Of a stretch of 6,125 nucleotides of DNA, positions 145 to 5,811 are shown one piece after another. Made by a program: the position numbers and the translations under genes. The DNA is taken from the sequence record PZ049726.1; one strand, 5' to 3'. The notes beneath the pieces were generated by a model. The model had not been told where the DNA came from. It worked only from the letters and a program-made list of their open reading frames with translations, and did no database searches. Every line of letters begins with the position of its first letter. Within the stretch, counting starts at the first letter, position 1. This stretch comes from a phage.

Positions 145-1095
145 TTATATTTTGTGTTTAAATGCAACTATTCTTATATTCTTATTCTCGTAAACTCTGT
201 TCCAGTTTGCTTGATTTGCTAACTCAGCATTTGAAGGTGATTTTTTAGCAACAGAAGCATCAGTAAACTTAACACCTCTTGGATGTAGTAAGAAGTGTTG
301 TCTGTTTATTAATATATCTTCTCCAGCTAATGAATCTCTGTCTGTTTCAGTTGGTACAGGAGCAGCTCCATTACCTTCACCTATTGCACCTTGTCCGAAT
401 AAGTATGTAGTATATACATCTCCATCTTTAGGACAACCATCATCAACTATAACTTTTCTTCCTAAGTATGAAGGGAAATCAACAACTCCTTGAGAGTTAG
501 GTATATATTGAATTAAGTTTTGTTTCTCTAGTTCTGCAAATACAGTTGAGTGCATAGCAACTGCAGTTAACTTATCAGATGCATCTCCTAGTTTTGTTTT
601 AGCATCTATAAAAGAAGTTCCATTTATTTTAGCTAAGTCCCCTTCAAGAGAAGATATGTCATGTACGTTTCCACTCATTGTACTCGAAGCAAATACACCT
701 TTTAAAACAGCTAATAATGTTTTTTGTCTCTGTCTTGCCCAATATTCAGCCACTAAATCACCTATAGCTTTCATTGGATCATCACCACTTAAAGCCGTTG
801 CTAAGTCATTAACTGACCACGCTTTACCTCTCATTAATAAAGCAGCAACGTCTTGACCTGCAGTTATTTTACCAGGTGTTAATGCTCCATTATCATCTAA
901 AACTTCATCATCACCATTTAAATCTTTCCAGTATGGCATATTTATTAATCTACCACCTGCTAATGCTAAAGAATCTAATTCTTTGTCCTTAACAATTATT
1001 CCACACTTTACCAATGCAGATAATTCAGCTGTCCTTTCTATAACATAAGGGTTAAATACCTCTGGTACTATTACATCAGCTATCTTTGTTGACAT
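145..1095 (-). CDS. Major capsid protein, SPP1 gp13-like (HK97 fold)
   Basis: 316-aa ORF. N-terminal ADVIVPEVFNPYV, NMPYWKDL and LSGDDPM, and C-terminal ILINRQHFLLHPRGVKF and ANWNRVYENKNIRIV, match my recollection of SPP1 gp13-type capsid proteins. It sits directly after the scaffold gene, as in SPP1. Confidence 0.9.
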   Translation of the reverse strand: MSTKIADVIVPEVFNPYVIERTAELSALVKCGIIVKDKELDSLALAGGRLINMPYWKDLNGDDEVLDDNGALTPGKITAGQDVAALLMRGKAWSVNDLATALSGDDPMKAIGDLVAEYWARQRQKTLLAVLKGVFASSTMSGNVHDISSLEGDLAKINGTSFIDAKTKLGDASDKLTAVAMHSTVFAELEKQNLIQYIPNSQGVVDFPSYLGRKVIVDDGCPKDGDVYTTYLFGQGAIGEGNGAAPVPTETDRDSLAGEDILINRQHFLLHPRGVKFTDASVAKKSPSNAELANQANWNRVYENKNIRIVAFKHKI

Positions 1096-1115: not shown

Positions 1116-1730
1116 TTATTTATTATTTTTTAATTGTTCTGCTAGTGTTGGGTTTTCTTTTAAAATCCTTGCTTGCTCTGTAAGATTGAAAGTTTCTTTT
1201 GCCCAAGGATTAGCTACACTTTGTCCTTTTCTTCCGTAATTTCCTACTCCACCAGTATTTTTAGGAGTTAGCTCTTCAAACAAATAACTATCACTTTCTC
1301 TTAAGCCTTTTATTTGACTTTCTAAACCTTCTAACTTTCCATCTTGATATTTTATACTTTCCATATCAAGTAAAGCTTTTATAGCCTTACTATTCTTACA
1401 TTTCGAACTATTCAAGGCATTATCAAGAGCATAATCAAACTCCATAGCTTTTATTTTATTCTCATATTGTTCAGAAGCTTGTTTATTTGTAAGCTGTAAC
1501 TCCTCTATTTGCTTTACTAGAGTTTCATTGTCTTTATTGTTCTTAGATAAATCTTCTAACTGTGTTTTGTAGTCAGTTAATCTATTATCTAACTCTTTTT
1601 TTTGTTCATTCACTTGGTCGAATCTAGCTTTAGGTATAAAGTTTCCATCATCAACCATTATCTTTTTATCACCTAACTTAGATGTCACTTGGTTATAAAG
1701 TTCTTCTCCTAACAATTGTTTTAAATCCAT
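1116..1730 (-). CDS. Phage scaffold protein (GP20 / minor structural protein family)
   Basis: 204-aa ORF. N-terminal LGEELYNQVTSKLGDKKIMVDDGNFIPKARFDQVNEQ is followed by a long charged coiled-coil-like region. It lies immediately upstream of the capsid gene. Confidence 0.8.
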   Translation of the reverse strand: MDLKQLLGEELYNQVTSKLGDKKIMVDDGNFIPKARFDQVNEQKKELDNRLTDYKTQLEDLSKNNKDNETLVKQIEELQLTNKQASEQYENKIKAMEFDYALDNALNSSKCKNSKAIKALLDMESIKYQDGKLEGLESQIKGLRESDSYLFEELTPKNTGGVGNYGRKGQSVANPWAKETFNLTEQARILKENPTLAEQLKNNK

Positions 1731-1743
1731 AATTAAATCCCCC

Positions 1744-2010
1744 TTATTTCAACTTTCCAACTTGATTTTGAAGCATGTATCCTTCTAAATACCACAATCT
1801 ATCTTTAAACCTAGATTTGCATATTTCAGCTCCAAAATCTTCATCGTAGTTAGCTGGATCTACACATGCTGAACTTTCAACTAATGTAAAACCACAAGGT
1901 AATTCCATTACAACAATTGTTATTTTCCCAAACATAGTTGTTACATGAAATTTAGAGTTGTTGTAAATTTCATCTATTTGACTTTGTTTAACTGTTATAT
2001 CAGATTTCAT
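1744..2010 (-). CDS. Small phage protein resembling the N4 Gp49 / Sf6 gp66 family (function unknown)
   Basis: 88-aa ORF. The core ...VMELPCGFTLVESSACVDPANYDEDFGAEICKSRFKDRLWYLEGYML matches the remembered family signature (NGF.v.GeSaCvdp.nfd.e.G...A...a...iW.LEGY.L). Its start overlaps the upstream stop (TAATG at 2008..2012). AGGAGGG lies upstream. Confidence 0.65.
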   Translation of the reverse strand: MKSDITVKQSQIDEIYNNSKFHVTTMFGKITIVVMELPCGFTLVESSACVDPANYDEDFGAEICKSRFKDRLWYLEGYMLQNQVGKLK

Positions 2011-2291
2011 TACTTACACCCTCCTATTTGTATTTTACCTACTTTCACAACAACCTCATTATTTTCATTTAACTCTATTACCGGTTCTTTGTAATGCTCG
2101 AATTCAACTTTAACATTTACAGACTGAATTAACTTTGTTGGTTTGATTTCTTCTGCATCTAACTTTAGAGTTCCAAATTGAGGTATTTTGAAATTTTGAA
2201 TATCTTTAGAAGATATACCTCCATAACCAAAAGATTGCTTGTTCCAATCATCTGTAAGTATTCCTATAACTTGCTTATTAATATTATCCAT
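2010..2291 (-). CDS. Hypothetical protein (93 aa)
   Basis: Intact ORF on the operon strand with GGAGG 4 nt upstream of the ATG at 2291..2289. It is translationally coupled to the next gene. I recognise no motif. Confidence 0.55.
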   Translation of the reverse strand: MDNINKQVIGILTDDWNKQSFGYGGISSKDIQNFKIPQFGTLKLDAEEIKPTKLIQSVNVKVEFEHYKEPVIELNENNEVVVKVGKIQIGGCK

Positions 2292-2393
2292 AAATCCTCC
2301 ATACGTTTTTTAGTTGTAACGACAACATAGATTAAGCTTAATTTGTTCTTTAACGCCTACAATAGAAGCTAAAAAGGCGCATAAAAAAAGAAC

Positions 2394-2522
2394 TTATAAA
2401 AAGTCCTTACCGTATTCTTTAAACCATTTATCTAGTTTTGCATTACTTTCACCATCTATCCAATTTCTAAGTTCCTCGCCTATTTGGTCGAGTTCTTTTT
2501 CAAGCACTGGTATAGTAGTACA
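2394..2522 (-). pseudogene. Orphan 3' end of a head-morphogenesis (SPP1 gp7 / Mu F family) gene: copy B of the duplicated last 42 codons plus stop
   Basis: Hand translation: CTTIPVLEKELDQIGEELRNWIDGESNAKLDKWFKEYGKDFL*. It aligns codon for codon with 3283..3411. It has no start codon or RBS of its own. The reading frame upstream is closed by the HNH stop 6 codons earlier. Confidence 0.75.
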
Positions 2523-2550
2523 TATAATAAAAGCACCTAATTAAAGGTGC
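2523..2550 (-). terminator. Candidate intrinsic terminator at the end of the HNH gene
   Basis: On the minus strand: GCACCT-TTAATT-AGGTGC (6-bp stem, 6-nt loop, 2533..2550; the HNH TAA stop spans the stem-loop boundary) followed by TTTTATTATA (2523..2532). The stem is short, so it is probably weak or leaky. Confidence 0.4.
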
Positions 2551-3224
2551 ATATCCGATAAATATTTATAAAATTGTTTTCTAGTTGTTTTTTCACCTTT
2601 ATATTTGTTGTGAAATTTATTATGACAACTTACACAAAGAGTTACTCCATTGTCTAAATCTAATCTTAAATCTTTATGAGTATCATAGCTATCCAGATGG
2701 TGTGCCACTAAATTGTATCCATCATCTTTGGTTTTACCACATATCTTGCAAGTATAATCATCTCTTTCTCTAACACTTTTACTCCAAGACTTATATCCAA
2801 ATATTCCACGATTTTCAATTCTATGATTTTCGGATATATTGTTATCATATCTTCCATTGTTTTTACCACTATTAGCTTTAGATATTTTCCTTTTATACTC
2901 TTTCGTCTGCATTACTTTTCTAAGATTATCCCTGCTTTCAGTAGAGTTTAAATAAGTATTGGCTATGTTTTTAGAATTATTTACAAATGCTTCTCTGTCG
3001 GATTTATCTGTATTCTTCCACCAATTATCAAAAGCTTCTTTTCTGCTTCTTGTATTAATTCCTAATTTTCTTAATTGTCTTGATAAATTTCCACTATCAC
3101 AATTAAGTTCTTTAGATATCATAGGTATTGACATTTCTTCATCAATGTAAAGTTTTTTTAATACCTCCGAATATTCCATTCCATATCTTTCTTCAACTTC
3201 GATCATTCTCTTAGATTTTCTCAC
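2541..3224 (-). CDS. HNH homing-type endonuclease (N-terminal HTH, NUMOD3-like linker motifs, C-terminal HNH nuclease)
   Basis: The C-terminus WSKSVRERDDYTCKICGKTKDDGYNLVAHHLDSYDTHKDLRLDLDNGVTLCVSCHNKFH is a textbook CxxC...HH...N...CxxCH HNH motif. The preferred start is GTG at 3224..3222, 6 nt after AGGAGG (3231..3236). The track's start at 3263 has no RBS. ATG at 3206 is an alternative start. Confidence 0.85.
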   Translation of the reverse strand: MRKSKRMIEVEERYGMEYSEVLKKLYIDEEMSIPMISKELNCDSGNLSRQLRKLGINTRSRKEAFDNWWKNTDKSDREAFVNNSKNIANTYLNSTESRDNLRKVMQTKEYKRKISKANSGKNNGRYDNNISENHRIENRGIFGYKSWSKSVRERDDYTCKICGKTKDDGYNLVAHHLDSYDTHKDLRLDLDNGVTLCVSCHNKFHNKYKGEKTTRKQFYKYLSDMHL

Positions 3225-3251
3225 AACAAACCTCCTAATGTTTATACTATA

Positions 3252-3280
3252 ATTATAGTACACAATCCATTAGGATTCAA
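3252..3280 (-). promoter_or_regulatory. Candidate sigma-A type promoter for the HNH gene
   Basis: On the minus strand: TTGAAT (3280..3275), a 17-nt spacer, then TATAAT (3257..3252). It lies in the short gap between the copy A stop (3283..3285) and the HNH RBS. The -10 box sits inside the 12-nt palindrome CTATAATTATAG. Confidence 0.5.
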
Positions 3281-3282
3281 GT

Positions 3283-3438
3283 TTAAATAAAGTATTTCCC
3301 ATACTTTTCAAACCAACTATCAAGCTTCGGACTTTGCTTTCCATTAACCCAGTCTTTCAATTCTTGCCCAATTTCATCAAGATTCTTTTCTAGTACGGGT
3401 ATTGTAGTGCAAAGTCCATTCGGGTGTCCAACGGCAAA
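3283..3438 (-). other. Out-of-frame 3' coding segment of the head-morphogenesis gene (conserved HPN..C motif plus copy A of the duplicated tail)
   Basis: The frame shifted -1 from ORF 3390..4220 reads FAVGHPNGLCTTIPVLEKNLDEIGQELKDWVNGKQSPKLDSWFEKYGKYFI*. This is the expected family C-terminus (HPN, Cys, ..P). That frame is closed just upstream by TAA TAA (3439..3444). Confidence 0.75.
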
Positions 3439-4220
3439 TTATTAACTGAATAAACAACTCCATTCCTACTCCTACTCATACACAATTCACAAGTTCTATG
3501 ACTACCTGAAGTAAGCCATTTAATTCCAGCAACAAACGGATTTCTTTGGCAACTTCTCTTCTGTGCTTGTTGAAAAGTATGATTTATTGCAGTACGGGCA
3601 AGTCTTTGAGCGTTATAATCAACTTGGGTAGAAGCTTTACGATATGTAGTCCTCCATTTCAAAGACTTTCTAGCACTAGGATTCAAATACACTTCCAAGT
3701 CCTTAGCAATTTCATACATAGACTTCTTTTCTGCAATTCCTTGAGCTAGAATATAGTCAATATCCTTTTCAAACTTCTTAGTGCATGCCCATATTCTTTT
3801 GCTTAAGCCTAATCTATCTTTGTAAAGCTTCCCAGACATTATTTCATTAACTGCAGCTTGAGGAACTTTAGCAAACATATCTATAAAGGTATCAGCTAAA
3901 TCTAAGCTAAAGGATTTTTTTATATCGAAGAGCATATTTAGTTGAGTTTCGTTGGCTATATTAGCAATCTCTATTAAATCCTTACTTAGTCTCTTATCAA
4001 TAGAATTAGAGAAAGTTGAAATATCTGTTTGTAAGGATTTTAATACACTTCTTACATATCTTTCGGATAAACTATCCTTTGATACTTTTGAAAGCTTCTT
4101 AGATGTATTTAAGTACATTTGCTTATATATATCTTTTATTTCTCTTTGAAGCTTCTTTGTTAGATGTATCTTTTTCTTATTAGCTTCTAGGCATAACTTT
4201 TCGTATTCTGATTTATTCAT
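3390..4220 (-). CDS. Phage head-morphogenesis / minor head protein, SPP1 gp7 / Mu F family; truncated by a frame discontinuity as it stands
   Basis: 276-aa ORF. It contains LSKRIW, YNAQRLARTAINHTFQQAQ (family RTE-like segment) and SHRTCELCMSR..NGVVYSV (CxxC...G). The in-frame tail LDTRMDFALQYPY* lacks the family's terminal motif, which appears in the -1 frame instead. It sits after the portal gene, as in SPP1. Confidence 0.85.
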   Translation of the reverse strand: MNKSEYEKLCLEANKKKIHLTKKLQREIKDIYKQMYLNTSKKLSKVSKDSLSERYVRSVLKSLQTDISTFSNSIDKRLSKDLIEIANIANETQLNMLFDIKKSFSLDLADTFIDMFAKVPQAAVNEIMSGKLYKDRLGLSKRIWACTKKFEKDIDYILAQGIAEKKSMYEIAKDLEVYLNPSARKSLKWRTTYRKASTQVDYNAQRLARTAINHTFQQAQKRSCQRNPFVAGIKWLTSGSHRTCELCMSRSRNGVVYSVNNLPLDTRMDFALQYPY

Positions 4221-4222
4221 AA

Positions 4223-4405
4223 TTATTTTCTGTTTAAATCAACATAAAGAGTTTTCTTTATGTATTTAGCCATCTCTAAATATTGACTTCTTATCTTTTT
4301 ATCTATTCTACTATCTTCTAGCATAGTTACAAAAGCATACATTGATTCTTTGAATTCATCAGTTTGTGTAAGCTTTACTTCTAAATTTATAAAGTTATCT
4401 TCCAT
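4223..4405 (-). CDS. Hypothetical protein (60 aa)
   Basis: The ORF fills the portal to gp7-like gap exactly. Its ATG overlaps the portal stop (TAATG at 4403..4407), and its stop lies 2 nt before the next ATG. No motif recognised. Confidence 0.5.
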   Translation of the reverse strand: MEDNFINLEVKLTQTDEFKESMYAFVTMLEDSRIDKKIRSQYLEMAKYIKKTLYVDLNRK

Positions 4406-5811
4406 TACTCAACTACCTCCTCAATCATTCCTATGCTATCTTCTAACATAGTCTTTTCTAATTGTATTTGCTTAAGTTCTTCATCAGCTATTTCATCAGT
4501 AGCATTTACCCACTTCTTAATATAAGTTTTCTTACTCATTGTCTGAGTATTGACTTGTTGCATATCAATAGTTTTTTCAGTATCTTCATCCTCTTGTAAT
4601 GGATATTGATTTTCTACAACTACCTCAAATTCTTCTAAGATAGGTAGCTTAGTTATGTTATAAACCTCTATCATTTCAAGAGTTGCTTTTATCATCCACT
4701 CAAGAGCAGGTCTCCAAGCTTTCATTTTCTCCTCGCACCTAGTAATAAGTTGCCAGTACAAAGCTTTCATAGACTTACCACTTGTCATCATACCTTTTAA
4801 ATCTTGGTTGTTGATTAAAGGTATATTTAAAACCTCATGCATATCAGATTTAATTCTATTAAGTGTGTTTTCCATACGCTCATTATAATTAAAATCAGTT
4901 TCTACAGTTCCTATTTGTGCTTGTTTTCCTTCACTTGCTGTTTGGTCAGTTGCTACATCCCAATATGCTCCTGGTTTTATTTTGAAATGTTTAGATGCAT
5001 CGGGATCTACATCTGTTCCATAGATAATCCTATTCATTCCTTTTCTAAGAGCATCTATATCCTCACTAGATAGTTTATTGTAAGCAACAGCATTGTCGCA
5101 TAGTTCTTCAACATCACTTTCTCCCTTTAAGTCTCCAGAAAGTCCATCATTTAATATTACATATGCTGGTATACCTGTGAGCTTTAAGTCAACATCTTTT
5201 GAAATAATTTCAATAGGAGTTCCATATCCATCGTATATACCTTCATTGAGAATACATTTGTCTTTAACCATTTCGTATTTCTGTTTCCATATCCTCTGTT
5301 CATTCTTAGTTTCTGCTTGGTTAAGTTGATAGAAGAATATAATCTTTCGTAGTTCATCTACTCTATCATCAAAAGGCTCATACACAAACTCTAAGCTAGG
5401 CACAAACATTATTCTTATTGTCTTAGTTATTGTATCTGCATGAAGCTTAATAGCAACTCTTTTACCTATGAAACAATCTCTAGCTGCTTTAATAAGTTTA
5501 TCTTCAAATAAGTTCTTTTTTAGAAGTTTTTTAATGTATTTATTTATTTCTTCTGCTTGATCCTTTAATGTATCATCGTCAACTGCAATTGAGAATGTTG
5601 GAGCTTTACCAAATAGGAATCTAGCTTCTTCTTTAATAAGCTTCTTTATATAGTTGACCTTCTTTTTAGTTGGAACATAATCCTCTTCATCAACTACCCA
5701 ATCTTGACCTGGCCCCTCATAAATATCATAAAGGTTTATAATATCACTATGTTCTTTAATTATCTCACTCCCGTAAAGTCCTTCAAGTTCAGATTTTATT
5801 ATATTTATCAT
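4405..5811 (-). CDS. Phage portal protein, SPP1 gp6 family
   Basis: 468-aa ORF directly downstream of the terminase large subunit. RBS AGGAGGTGA lies upstream of the ATG at 5811..5809. Its size, position and acidic C-terminus fit SPP1-type portals. The family call rests on synteny and overall resemblance, not a search. Confidence 0.88.
   Translation of the reverse strand: MINIIKSELEGLYGSEIIKEHSDIINLYDIYEGPGQDWVVDEEDYVPTKKKVNYIKKLIKEEARFLFGKAPTFSIAVDDDTLKDQAEEINKYIKKLLKKNLFEDKLIKAARDCFIGKRVAIKLHADTITKTIRIMFVPSLEFVYEPFDDRVDELRKIIFFYQLNQAETKNEQRIWKQKYEMVKDKCILNEGIYDGYGTPIEIISKDVDLKLTGIPAYVILNDGLSGDLKGESDVEELCDNAVAYNKLSSEDIDALRKGMNRIIYGTDVDPDASKHFKIKPGAYWDVATDQTASEGKQAQIGTVETDFNYNERMENTLNRIKSDMHEVLNIPLINNQDLKGMMTSGKSMKALYWQLITRCEEKMKAWRPALEWMIKATLEMIEVYNITKLPILEEFEVVVENQYPLQEDEDTEKTIDMQQVNTQTMSKKTYIKKWVNATDEIADEELKQIQLEKTMLEDSIGMIEEVVE

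Follow-up and report, generated by a model that had tools for sequence, protein, structure and literature searches.

A probable homing-type HNH endonuclease cassette behind a Clostridia phage head-morphogenesis gene, and the disruption of its putative target site

Comparison with related loci shows that a 6,125-nucleotide stretch of phage DNA (record PZ049726.1; hereafter the window) carries what appears to be a homing-type element, in which a diverged gene tail (copy A), a promoter, an HNH endonuclease ORF and a terminator precede the orphaned resident tail (copy B) of a head-morphogenesis gene. The same comparisons show that the cassette comes and goes among near-identical phages, that the block holding copy A has moved between gene backgrounds, and that partial conversions leave A/B hybrid tails devoid of the HNH gene. 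The host element is a Paraclostridium-type prophage with an inserted selfish nuclease gene. On the sequence evidence, the mechanism favoured here, and considered probable, is that of a free-standing homing endonuclease whose carrier would be protected by an altered spacing within the target; related loci with gaps at that site would be candidate stop-hops, and the window a secondary state.

The HNH gene and its expression unit

The nuclease gene (2541..3224, minus strand) starts at a GTG, has an AGGAGG at 3236..3231 and encodes 227 aa. An ATG-started translation of 221 aa (3206..2544) is 100% identical to the homologue P0121 (227 aa), and the GTG start at 3224 accounts for the six extra residues of that length. 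The protein consists of an N-terminal HTH-like region, a NUMOD3 motif (Pfam 2.1e-4, 21.6 bits, cut-off 20.4) and a C-terminal HNH domain (Pfam E 1.7e-8, 34.9 bits, cut-off 21.4), and also matches PHROG HNH families. Upstream lies a sigma-70-like promoter, TTGAAT-17-TATAAT (3252..3281, minus strand; -35 at 3280..3275, -10 at 3257..3252), and downstream an intrinsic terminator (2523..2550, minus strand), GCACCT-TTAATT-AGGTGC followed by TTTTATTATA, which overlaps the HNH stop codon and adjoins copy B; one such element was found against 0.2 expected, and equivalent hairpins close the cassettes of loci L008, L011 and L017. The roughly 760 nt between the two tails thus hold the promoter, AGGAGG ribosome-binding site, 227-aa HNH ORF and terminator of a complete expression unit, as the initial annotation had proposed. 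A group I intron or intein was rejected: Rfam intron families were unmatched both at the gathering threshold and at E<=1, the non-coding DNA flanking the ORF is short, some 60 nt 5' of it (3282..3225) and some 18 nt 3' of it (2540..2523), and the ORF has its own start and stop codons, with no in-frame intein fusion.

The HNH protein family is a rare one of 31 members, and all close members lie directly after gp7; a distant homologue (L021) sits behind a MuF gene with an intact motif. Phage matches to the protein (25 listed of 57 records) are from Staphylococcus, Bacillus and Haloarcula phages, with no T4-type phage among those 25 listed of 57. Among the matches listed, HNH genes of Staphylococcus and Bacillus myoviruses, a few of which bear the annotation homing endonuclease, come nearest within cultured phages, and the sole solved relative by sequence is the phage HNH endonuclease 5h0m (E 2.4e-5). 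The latter, together with the location of the gene inside the head/packaging block, would suit a packaging accessory of the terminase-portal module (HK97 gp74-type) that follows gp7 through ordinary synteny. Such a role is very improbable, given that the gene is missing from the closest relatives with otherwise identical head modules, follows gp7 rather than adjoining the terminase, encodes a NUMOD3 motif typical of homing nucleases, is served by its own promoter and terminator, has nearest cultured-phage relatives (among the matches listed) that are partly annotated as homing endonucleases, and is always linked to a disrupted neighbouring site.

Two gene tails of separate origin

Copy A (3283..3411, minus strand; 42 codons and a stop) encodes CTTIPVLEKNLDEIGQELKDWVNGKQSPKLDSWFEKYGKYFI, and is the diverged, cassette-linked tail. 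Copy B (2394..2522, minus strand; also 42 codons and a stop) encodes CTTIPVLEKELDQIGEELRNWIDGESNAKLDKWFKEYGKDFL, lacks a start codon and is the resident tail, now an orphan. Aligned without gaps, the copies share 84/129 nt and 26/42 aa plus the stop; at these 27 identical positions (26 residues and the stop) the codon is the same in 10 and different in 17. These counts reproduce those of the initial annotation (84/129 nt, 26/42 aa, 17 conserved residues with different codons), and its reading of two separately evolved alleles without a recent tandem duplication is now backed by saturated synonymous sites (pS about 1.0, pN 0.20) and by the closeness of copy B, and distance of copy A, to HNH-less alleles. 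Its description of copy A as the last 42 codons of the gene holds for the sequence match alone, as copy A is out of frame and one C is missing: relative to the gene body it occupies the -1 frame, which is open from 3438.

Copy B is 128/129 nt identical to the tail of the HNH-less locus L004 (228/231 once the downstream flank is included) and encodes the same residues as the P0001 tail, and copy A differs from the HNH-less relatives at 45/129 nt. It follows that the orphaned end of the recipient is copy B and that copy A arrived with the cassette, which answers the question, previously left between donor and recipient, of whose end had been displaced. The closest HNH-less alleles (P0001/L004-L007 and L045) have a single tail, and both tails together were found in none of the HNH-less relatives compared, an arrangement that had been named as contrary to homing. 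Copy B is probably the right-hand homology arm for homing; in the sister cassettes it is cut to 11 codons fused to the HNH ORF (L009/L010) or absent (L011, L017). As to a donor lineage for copy A, a 51-residue query covering LPLDHPNGL and copy A had a single match, P0152 (86 aa, 65% identity), and yielded no full-length protein whose tail is close to copy A.

The two copies are direct repeats bracketing an insert, and a partial copy of the site at 3281..3256 can be read as the start of a duplicated unit, features that would also be produced by a local tandem duplication in this lineage, between whose halves an unrelated HNH gene landed later without homing. This history is very unlikely: a local duplicate should resemble copy B, yet copy A stands 45/129 positions from the HNH-less relatives and copy B 1/129; block A is identical in phages whose gene bodies differ; and in sister cassettes the HNH gene is accompanied by 11 codons of copy B or by none.

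Presence, spread and conversion tracts

The HNH cassette is absent from L004-L007 and L045, and present in the window, L015 and L008. The A-HNH-B arrangement recurs in the independent assemblies L015, L016 and L008, and is therefore not the assembly chimera against which the initial annotation had cautioned. Repeats of 129 nt at 65% identity, coupled with mixed prophage populations, can mislead assemblers, but an artefact of assembly or sequencing that merged two co-existing phage variants, and so created the arrangement or the missing C, has a very low probability, since the arrangement and the deletion recur in independent datasets (L015, L016, L002, L081), and L008 has the same copy-B junction as the window with a different copy A.

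Two loci, L002 (GCA_025671425) and L081 (an IMG/VR viral contig), have A/B hybrid tails and no HNH gene. Block A, which begins ~12 nt upstream of the site and extends through the whole of copy A, is 100% identical in the window, L015, L002 and L081, four loci whose gene bodies differ by about 10%, which points to recent horizontal spread. In one population of 37 loci (gp7 identity 91-100%), a gap at the site is found in 18, 4 of which have the HNH gene, and the gap module has a sharp left edge at a hairpin with variable right-hand tracts. Conversion tracts in the sister population are graded from the site toward the HNH gene; right-hand tracts extend +17, about +40, about +56 or about +85 nt, or through the HNH gene, which is reached only by the longest. 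All steps of the homing reading that can be checked by comparison are therefore borne out, namely the match of copy B, the single tails, the recurrence, the spread and the tracts. Near and distant DNA searches of the phage collection returned no close relative of the locus.

A broken conserved site in the head-morphogenesis gene

The SPP1 gp7/Mu F-like head-morphogenesis gene (3390..4220, minus strand; 276 aa) was recognised from the ORF list, PHROG and Pfam: the ORF (4220..3390) matches PHROG 1657 'head morphogenesis' (E 1.7e-56) and, weakly, Pfam Phage_Mu_F. Full-length gp7 relatives have 310-311 aa, as against 276 in the window. After an Asp codon (GAC, 3428..3426) the ORF leaves the frame for 13 unrelated codons and ends in ...NNLPLDTRMDFALQYPY, where relatives read ...NNLPLDHPNGxCTTIPV. 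The cause is a GAC-CAC without one C, between 3426 and 3425, inside the L-D-H-P-N-G-x-C motif, and the ORF consequently stops at 3390. The disrupted L-P-L-D-H-P-N-G-x-C coding site (3409..3437, minus strand), TTGCCGTTGGAC^ACCCGAATGGACTTTGC with the absent C at the caret, is the putative nuclease target. Residues H264, P265, N266, G267 and C269 are invariant in 17 full-length homologues, and a -1 shift exactly after GAC would yield CAC CCG AAT GGA CTT TGC, that is, HPNGLC.

The 1-nt deletion in the window is without a recognisable recoding signal: there is no X_XXY_YYZ slippery heptamer in 3441..3390, no significant structure in the local fold (z -0.49), and no stop after the take-off codon, matched codons or upstream hairpin in this allele. 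A plain inactivating frameshift is as likely here as any recoding. Three hops were considered as a rescue of the window allele and rejected: GAC-to-GAC at +12 remains in the zero frame, ACC-to-ACU deletes HPNGLC, and CCG-to-CCG at +11 deletes the invariant L-D-H.

Site disruption among carriers and relatives

In all 18 HNH-bearing loci, which represent five cassette types, the disruption comes directly behind one and the same Pro or His codon. The HNH-less loci obtained by gp7 queries that did not select on the site number 67, of which 42 are intact and 25 disrupted; disruption without an HNH gene is seen in L003, the L083 group, 14 loci of the L017 family, L002 and L081. The share of gap alleles is 18/37 in one population and 11/34 in a further sample, and for most of them no HNH gene lies within 2.5-3 kb. 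Homologous loci number ~1,370, with 120 proteins among the matches listed. A scan of genome contigs, in which the gp7 alignment query settled on the pattern DHPNG[LMK]CT, selected intact sites and nothing else, and was left out of the association counts. A separate scan of metagenome contigs yielded 12 loci only. A scan of viral contigs for GACCAYCC-N{2,26}-AAYGG....TGYAC gave 100 stretches, 6 of them in a MuF context and all of the L083 type, hence no new gap type. INPHARED contained no cultured phage with the gap, and phiCTP1, considered as a possible split gp7, was discarded as it has an intact 342-aa gene.

The four sister HNH-bearing cassette types have gaps of +1, +6 or +11 nt, vs -1 in the window, and these open with a stop codon between matching proline codons: CCC_UAA in L008, CCN_UGA_CCN in L003, L009, L083 and L017, and CCG_UAGUGAAG_CCA. 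A stop after the take-off codon, with a matched landing codon that restores the protein, is present in L008, L009/L003, L083, L017 and L011, and lacking in the window. The three independent insert sequences (6, 6 and 11 nt) each place a stop after the Pro codon and rebuild a Pro codon before AAY-GG. A hairpin with CUUGAC(C) as its 3' arm precedes the sister gaps: in the register tested, 4/5 gap types form all six pairs of the stem (dG -4.9 to -11.8 kcal/mol), and the fifth (L003/L009) has a weaker, shifted stem (-2.9 kcal/mol). The comparison set of 45 distinct intact allele sequences averages -1.2, with a best value of -4.2 in a different register, and has the stem in none. Z-scores of the gap hairpins reach -4.2, with 2/5 hairpins not energetically significant, and covariation is thin to marginal, consisting of one compensatory pair and one G.U, a score reached by 36/500 shuffles. 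The five gap modules are probably of common ancestry and so do not constitute independent trials.

The tails 3' of the break are open in all types and in 11 haplotypes, and HNH-linked tails have pS 0.49-0.84 (the lowest for the L009/L017 pair) and pN 0.19-0.41. Recombination with intact alleles could refresh these tails, since mosaicism is seen, and so mimic purifying selection. Two other explanations for continued use of the downstream frame were rejected: termination-reinitiation requires an in-frame AUG behind the stop, which L003/L009 (NG-M-C) have and the other types lack, and so fails as a general mechanism; UGA read-through or an alternative genetic code leaves the +1 and +11 gaps unexplained, with the other genes of these loci reading normally in code 11.

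The breaks at L-D-H-P-N-G may instead be loss-of-function scars without any recoding, arising as imprecise repair products or nuclease-resistant escape mutations and spreading by conversion drive despite truncating gp7; the C-terminal tail would then be dispensable or the prophages defective, and copy A as dead as copy B. The window deletion, with no known recoding signals, fits this explanation, as does the fact that any 1-nt insertion before CCTAA automatically makes CCC_TAA. A driving nuclease can also raise costly resistant alleles to high frequency, the tail mosaics show that recombination often involves intact alleles, and a gap was found in no isolated, plaque-forming phage. This explanation is nevertheless considered fairly unlikely. 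Random insertions are unlikely to place a stop and a regenerated Pro codon in inserts of 6, 6 and 11 nt alike; the hairpin occurs in all gapped alleles (weaker and shifted in L003/L009) and in no intact one; HNH-linked tails are conserved as protein despite synonymous saturation, with all 11 haplotypes of one population open; and the frequency of gap alleles (18/37, 11/34) is hard to square with loss of a motif containing the invariant H and C.

A third copy of the site in the HNH promoter

A third, partial copy of the site, CTTGAATCCTAATGGATTGTGTACTA, lies at 3281..3256 between the copy A stop and the HNH start and reads N-P-N-G-L-C-T. Its 17-nt core matches the site consensus at 17/17 positions (chance expectation 0.01), and it is this site copy, CCTAATGGATTGTGTAC at 3274..3258, that forms the promoter spacer from -35 to -10. 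The gap to the left half-site is 2 nt shorter (CTTGA--ATCC). The arrangement of promoter with site copy is also found in L008, L009 and L011; a suggestion that the pseudo-site of L017 tracks its local target was dropped, as a match of 14/21 is not above shuffles. The heptamer TGTACTA is present at both cassette edges, at 3262..3256 (the 3' end of the pseudo-site) and 2522..2516 (the start of copy B). The promoter copy may perhaps be just a relic of the original insertion junction. The statement in the initial annotation that the flanks of the two tails do not align is incomplete, given that this partial copy resembles the region just upstream of the Cys codon; the third site copy, the frameshift in copy A and the family-wide target disruption were all absent from that annotation.

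Proposed mechanism

From where the polymorphisms fall, we infer the position of the target: the predicted nuclease would recognise conserved DNA encoding L-D-H-P-N-G-x-C, 9-24 nt upstream of the starts of copies A and B. At this target the L004-type HNH-less allele reads ...GATCATCCGAATGGGAAATGTAC.... Such an allele would be cut or nicked, and repair from an HNH-bearing genome would copy all the DNA from the break as far as the near-identical copy B or downstream arm, with the strong synonymous divergence of tail A keeping repair from resolving before the HNH gene has been copied. In target-like copies in HNH-bearing genomes the spacing of YTNGAC to AAYGG..TGYAC is always altered, the change being -1 nt for the gene in the window, -2 nt for the copy in the promoter and +1, +6 or +11 nt for the sister cassettes. 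This altered half-site spacing would shield the carrier from its own nuclease.

In the sister cassettes, L-D-H-P-N-G-x-C would be restored exactly if the P-site peptidyl-tRNA-Pro re-paired after shifting by +1 or hopping over 6 or 11 nt. Recoding would yield a junction peptide such as ...NGVVYSVNNLPLDHPNGLCTTIPVLEK. The sister gaps may thus be short-range counterparts of the T4 gene 60 bypass, which is seen as protecting against MobA. The window allele would represent a secondary state, in which the hairpin-plus-gap module has been lost and a 1-nt deletion is now protective; its gp7 would be either a truncated protein of 276 aa or one that unprogrammed -1 shifting behind GAC restores in a small share of cases.

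A broader proposal, put forward tentatively and at a little under an even chance, is that gp7 of a set of Clostridia phages hosts a mobile recoding module of ~45 nt that travels with the HNH nuclease and protects against it, acting by +1 slippage or 6-/11-nt tRNA-Pro hops, with the window deletion derived from it. From its 5' end, the module would comprise a hairpin, a take-off codon for proline, a stop, a spacer of 0-8 nt and a landing codon that again specifies proline. The window deletion would then be a derived member of the same arms race, possibly with low-level -1 rescue (a 'savior indel').

Relation to known systems and significance

T4-type phages are the source of the closest parallel, a MobA HNH homing endonuclease that reportedly accompanies a 50-nt translational bypass cassette in gene 60 (work attributed to Bonocora et al. 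in 2011). The origin and purpose of this bypass are still debated. To our knowledge, efficient programmed bypassing in phages is confined to this one element family, T4 gene 60/MobA and its homologues. The bypass is found in all carriers of the endonuclease, and also in some that have lost it (Manning & Atkins, 10.1101/2022.08.31.505936). The present system is alike in having a free-standing HNH nuclease beside a conserved phage gene, a diverged version of the adjacent coding region that belongs to the element itself (homR in T4, tail A in the window), and a gap at or near the nuclease site in all carriers that is kept in some loci without the nuclease. The sister cassettes further share the stop after the take-off codon, matched landing codon and upstream stem-loop, and the proposed role, carrier protection from its own nuclease, is the same. 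It differs in that the host gene is gp7/MuF of Clostridia siphovirus-type prophages, not a topoisomerase; the gaps measure 1, 6 or 11 nt and involve proline codons, where the T4 gap measures 50 nt and involves GGA; there is no division of the gene into two ORFs that gain new N- and C-terminal extensions; and the window allele has a 1-nt deletion and no bypass signals. The resemblance is thus one of mechanism and not of membership, as judged from the host gene and from the 25 phage matches listed of 57.

The layout of the window also recalls the 'mORF gene hybrids' of fungal mitochondria, known from Allomyces macrogynus atp6 and from Glomus atp6, atp9, cox2 and nad3 (PMC3630166). Gene body, foreign C-terminus, endonuclease ORF and native C*-terminus follow in the same order; the native copy matches relatives at 91-98% there and 99% here, and the inserted copy has a DNA identity of 64-81% there and 65% here, with the protein conserved (PMC3630166). 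A gap at the target site, or recoding, is not described for the fungal hybrids (PMC3630166). The endonucleases there are mitochondrial mobile ORFs, in contrast to a phage HNH nuclease here, and the inserted C-terminus is in phase there and one base out of frame here. The parallel with Allomyces atp6 drawn in the initial annotation therefore stands for the order and the divergence pattern, and not for the phase.

The seg/mob nucleases of T-even phages (SegF, SegG, MobE) are free-standing enzymes that cut the nuclease-less allele at a distance. Inheritance with variable co-conversion of flanking markers, and protection of the carrier by sequence differences at the site, would be common to both systems; protection there is by substitutions, here it would be by frame-breaking indels in a conserved motif, and no duplicated gene end is known to be left there. 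A further likeness is to I-TevI, which is said to repress its own expression via an operator resembling its homing site (attributed to Edgell et al., 2004): the target-like copy between the -35 and -10 of the nuclease promoter (3274..3258) is a putative operator of this kind.

With respect to recoding, +1 shifts at CCC_UGA occur in tsh of the Listeria phages PSA, A118 and A500 and in E. coli pheL, and 'stop-hops' have been constructed synthetically (PMC5009743); a 2016 review knew of no natural in-frame stop-hop (PMC5009743). L008, L003, L009, L083 and L017 share with these a proline codon in the P site ahead of a stop that is decoded slowly, and matched codons on either side of that stop, and differ in that the candidate event would be obligatory for a functional protein instead of adding an extension. 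If the recoding reading is true, these loci would provide the first stop-hop from nature and, next to T4 gene 60/MobA, only the second known element to pair a nuclease with a bypass, one that arose independently in a different gene and phage group. Breaking the target of one's own nuclease, with ribosomal repair of the message, would then be a general strategy of homing endonucleases, and gaps of +1, +6 and +11 nt at a single codon, which vary naturally in hairpin, stop and landing codon, would make a test series for short-range bypassing in Firmicutes. The window itself offers a phage case of a foreign C-terminus, endonuclease and orphan native C-terminus, an architecture so far seen mainly in fungal mitochondria.

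A practical point concerns annotation: gene callers report these gp7 genes as truncated (251, 265/266 or 274 aa) and accompanied by small orphan ORFs.

Gene content and the HNH expression unit

All genes of the window lie on the minus strand (ORF list, Pfam, PHROG), from the C-terminal part of the terminase large subunit (TerL; 3' end, its frame open from 6125 and stopping shortly before the portal start), through an SPP1-type portal gene (5811..4405), a 60-aa ORF (4405..4223), the SPP1 gp7/Mu F-like head-morphogenesis gene, here gp7 (4220..3390), a 227-aa NUMOD3-HNH gene (GTG start 3224, end 2541), a 93-aa ORF (2291..2010), a gp49/66-family ORF (2010..1744) and a scaffold gene (1730..1116), to the major capsid gene (1095..145). 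The window is most closely related to prophages found in Paraclostridium bifermentans and allied species. The 60-aa ORF has no family match; in a P. bifermentans chromosome locus (L003) the slot between portal and gp7 holds a 73-aa Tad2-like ORF (PF11195; 5777..5998), and the related locus L004 has an additional 119-aa ORF there. With small ORFs this variable, the interval resembles a slot for cargo within the head module.

The HNH gene lies between two gp7 tails, copy A (3411..3283, minus strand) and copy B (2522..2394, minus strand). The 760 nt separating them form the complete expression unit that the initial annotation had described, with a promoter (TTGAAT-17-TATAAT, 3280..3252), a ribosome-binding site (AGGAGG, 3236..3231), the GTG-initiated ORF and a terminator (2550..2523) all located on the minus strand. 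The HNH family is small (31 matches among 5.8 billion proteins), and all close members sit immediately downstream of gp7. A distant homologue (34% identity, 315 aa; L021, 514..2493) directly follows a MuF-family gene whose motif, PAHYNCRSG, is intact, so the association extends beyond the broken-site family. A packaging HNH was rejected, as the gene is absent from the closest relatives. A group I intron or intein was rejected too: Rfam scans gave no intron match even at E<=1, and the ORF has its own start and stop. The HNH proteins of the window (P0121) and of locus L008 (P0122) are 77% identical overall, yet no difference separates the two loci over the last ~54 residues, the terminator or copy B, which indicates recombination inside the nuclease gene between cassettes of different gap type (-1 in the window, +1 in L008).

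Resident and imported gp7 tails

Realignment reproduced the reported divergence of the two 129-nt tails: they share 84/129 nt, 26/42 aa and the stop codon, and 17 identical positions use different codons, with synonymous sites saturated and a pN of 0.20. Both copies exist as described, but copy A is out of frame with the gp7 body because one C is missing. HNH-less relatives (protein P0001 in L004-L007; L045) have a single tail, identical in protein to copy B. Copy B matches this HNH-less tail at 128/129 nt (228/231 including the downstream intergenic region), whereas copy A differs from it at 45/129 positions. It follows that the orphaned tail of the recipient is copy B, and that copy A is part of the cassette. 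None of the HNH-less relatives compared holds both tails, and the A-HNH-B arrangement recurs in independent assemblies, which excludes an assembly chimera. Copy B itself occurs in stages of decay, with 42 codons in the window, L015 and L008, just 11 codons, joined in frame with the HNH ORF, in L009/L010, and none in L011 and L017.

Comparison among loci shows that the cassette is mobile and has spread horizontally. A block that begins ~12 nt 5' of the conserved gp7 site described below and takes in all of copy A is 100% identical in the window, L015, L002 (Paraclostridium sp. AKS46) and L081, while their gp7 bodies differ by ~10%. L002 and L081 lack the HNH gene but share the 1-nt deletion, and carry a hybrid tail that follows copy A up to ...AAGTATGG and continues with the last codons and flank of copy B, the product expected from A x B recombination or partial conversion. 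To the right, the cassette is flanked by an intergenic element (2302..2370, minus strand), the 5' part of which (...TTTTTAGCTTCTATTGCAGGCGTAAAAGAA...) has acquired several substitutions but is still recognisable in every related locus, even the distant L011 and L017. This element gives a sub-threshold Rfam match to GP20-b (24.2 bits, E 0.012; gathering score 36.2), a candidate cis-regulatory RNA that precedes scaffold (GP20) genes in phages.

Disruption of a conserved gp7 site

A more important feature than the A/B architecture is the nuclease-linked disruption of a conserved site. Full-length gp7 relatives (310-311 aa) read ...VNNLPLDHPNG(K/L/M)CTTIPV..., whereas the window ORF from 4220 ends ...VNNLPLDTRMDFALQYPY at the stop at 3390, one C of GAC-CAC being missing between 3426 and 3425. 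His264, Pro265, Asn266, Gly267 and Cys269, like a CxxC further upstream, do not vary among 17 homologues, so the break falls in the most conserved part of gp7; from this His/Cys pattern and the CxxC we infer a putative metal-binding site. A third copy of the site, CTTGAATCCTAATGGATTGTGTACTA (3281..3256, minus strand), lies directly 3' of the copy A stop, reads N-P-N-G-L-C-T and forms the spacer of the HNH promoter; its core matches the site consensus 17/17 (0.01 expected by chance). Elsewhere in the window gp7, a 6-nt tandem duplication (AGTAGG-AGTAGG, 3465..3476, minus strand) adds Ser-Arg, giving MSRSRNG against MSRNG in all relatives. Some gp7 homologues run past the usual stop, by ~125 aa in P0025, P0037, P0043 and P0049 (435-439 aa) and by ~265 aa, with an HEFGH (HExxH-like) motif, in L101, extensions that we take to resemble toxin/effector domains fused to MuF proteins.

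In all five HNH+ cassette types (18 loci) gp7 is broken at this same place, each time differently: GAC^ACC CGA (-1 nt; window, L015, L016), CAT CCC TAA CGG GCT TTG C (+1 nt; L008), CAT CCT TGA CCT AAT GGA (+6 nt; L009, L010), CAT CCG TGA CCA TTA GGA (+6 nt; L017-L020, a distant gp7 with the motif HPLGRC) and CAT CCG TAG TGA AG CCA AAT GGA (+11 nt; L011-L014). No intact site occurs among the HNH+ loci found, whereas the 67 HNH-less loci, fetched by gp7 queries not selecting on the site, comprise 42 intact and 25 disrupted. Gaps without a nearby HNH gene are found in L003, the L083 group (CCG TGA CCG) and 14/18 gap alleles of the L017 family. Gap alleles make up 18/37 loci in this last population, with 91-100% identical gp7, and 11/34 loci in an unselected sample. 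The L017 family also contains a frame-intact third class (L128-L133, L142, L143, L148, L151), in which D-H-I-L-G-R-C (CAC ATA TTA GGT AGG) replaces D-H-P-L-G-R-C, with the otherwise invariant Pro substituted and several neighbouring synonymous positions changed; this may be an alternative, substitution-based nuclease-resistant allele.

Counted from the site, the hairpin-plus-gap module of the L017 family extends from ~-29 to +12. All gap alleles share one sharp left edge, which falls where the hairpin starts; the right boundary varies (+17, ~+40, ~+56 or ~+85 nt), and only four contigs have a tract that crosses the cassette tail and enters the HNH gene. Similarly, L003 is identical to L009 through the end of the gap, after which it carries the resident tail. 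Repair tracts from a lesion at the site would produce such patterns, which would explain gap+, HNH- alleles as hit-and-run or partial conversions. The homing interpretation of the initial annotation thus finds support in the native and imported tails, the mobility, the conversion tracts and the disrupted site of carriers.

Decoding or decay at the gaps

In the four insertion types the Pro codon is immediately followed by a stop, and the next canonical codon has another Pro codon immediately before it. If the P-site tRNA-Pro re-paired +1, +6 or +11 nt further on, the product would be exactly L-D-H-P-N-G-x-C (or HPLGRC). Read-through of UGA would insert two residues into the invariant motif and cannot handle the +1 and +11 gaps. 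The tails 3' of the break are open in every type (among HNH-linked tails, pS 0.49-0.84, lowest in the L009/L017 pair; pN 0.19-0.41), and all 11 tail haplotypes behind the L017-family gap are intact.

A hairpin ends 2-3 nt before the take-off Pro codon in all five insertion-type modules: GGUCAAGG-7 nt-CCUUGACC in L083 (dG -11.8), GGUCGAG/CUCGACC with an A-U to G-C exchange in L017, GUCAGG/CUUGAC with one G.U pair in L011, a stem of dG -7.6 in L008, and a shifted GUCAA/UUGAC stem in L009/L003. The stem is absent from all 45 distinct intact allele sequences compared (mean -1.2 kcal/mol; the best, at -4.2, pairs in another register). Three gap types have Z-scores of -4.2, -2.8 and -3.0, those of L011 and L009 are not significant, and formal covariation is thin (one compensatory pair; 36/500 shuffles reach the score). 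In T4 gene 60, forward movement is proposed to be driven by a 5' stem that re-forms as the message emerges from the ribosome (10.1101/2024.12.09.627546). Listeria phages and E. coli pheL use CCC_UGA for +1 shifting, and matched codons around a stop give "stop-hops" in synthetic constructs, with no natural case known (PMC5009743). The open tails, the frequency of gap alleles, the hairpins and these precedents lend support to decoding over decay, and the sister-phage disruptions bear the hallmarks of programmed short-range bypassing.

The window disruption is a bare frameshift. A -1 shift exactly after GAC would give CAC CCG AAT GGA CTT TGC and restore the motif, but no slippery heptamer or significant structure was found in the frame-overlap stretch. 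It seems rather unlikely that this gp7 is rescued at low level, by the "savior indel" logic of PMC5009743, instead of being left truncated.

A proposed mechanism and its relatives

Comparison shows the anatomy of the cassette, which tail is resident and which imported, its horizontal spread, partial conversions, and a disrupted site in all carriers found. Beyond this, we propose that the HNH enzyme recognises the L-D-H-P-N-G-x-C DNA as a bipartite site, and that carriers would be protected by altered spacing of the YTNGAC half to the AAYGG..TGYAC half (-1, -2 in the promoter copy, +1, +6 or +11 nt). Right-hand homology would come from copy B together with the conserved element downstream of it, synonymous divergence of tail A may discourage early resolution of repair, and insertion-type gaps would be decoded through tRNA-Pro re-pairing. 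In the window allele the hairpin module is missing, and the stretch 5' of the site looks like that of the resident allele; we read the window allele as derived, the module having been lost by recombination and protection then restored by the 1-nt deletion.

The closest mechanism appears to be that of T4 MobA/gene 60, where every carrier of the element has the bypass, as do several from which the nuclease has been lost (10.1101/2022.08.31.505936); likewise, the gap here is in all HNH+ loci found and also in HNH- alleles. This is resemblance rather than membership, since the host gene differs (gp7), no T4-type phage occurs in the best 25 of 57 records of phage matches to the HNH protein, and the gaps are of 1-11 nt with proline codons. 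The parallel with fungal mitochondrial mORF hybrid genes (Allomyces atp6, Glomus genes; PMC3630166) holds for the architecture, but not for the broken frame of copy A. No earlier description of this gp7/HNH/broken-site system was found in the literature searched. The HNH-linked gaps allow direct tests of stop-hopping in nature and of nuclease immunity as a rationale for bypassing.

In L002 (~3440..4400) and L003, a ~960-nt insert encoding a 208-aa HNH_3 (PF13392) ORF interrupts TerL within a conserved motif, ...DKDNHS | (I)DATRYALE..., and matches no Rfam intron family even at E<=1. The last 25 TerL codons resume after the insert in a different frame, and TerL is uninterrupted in the window and L004. 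This split is a second nuclease-associated gene interruption within the same head module.
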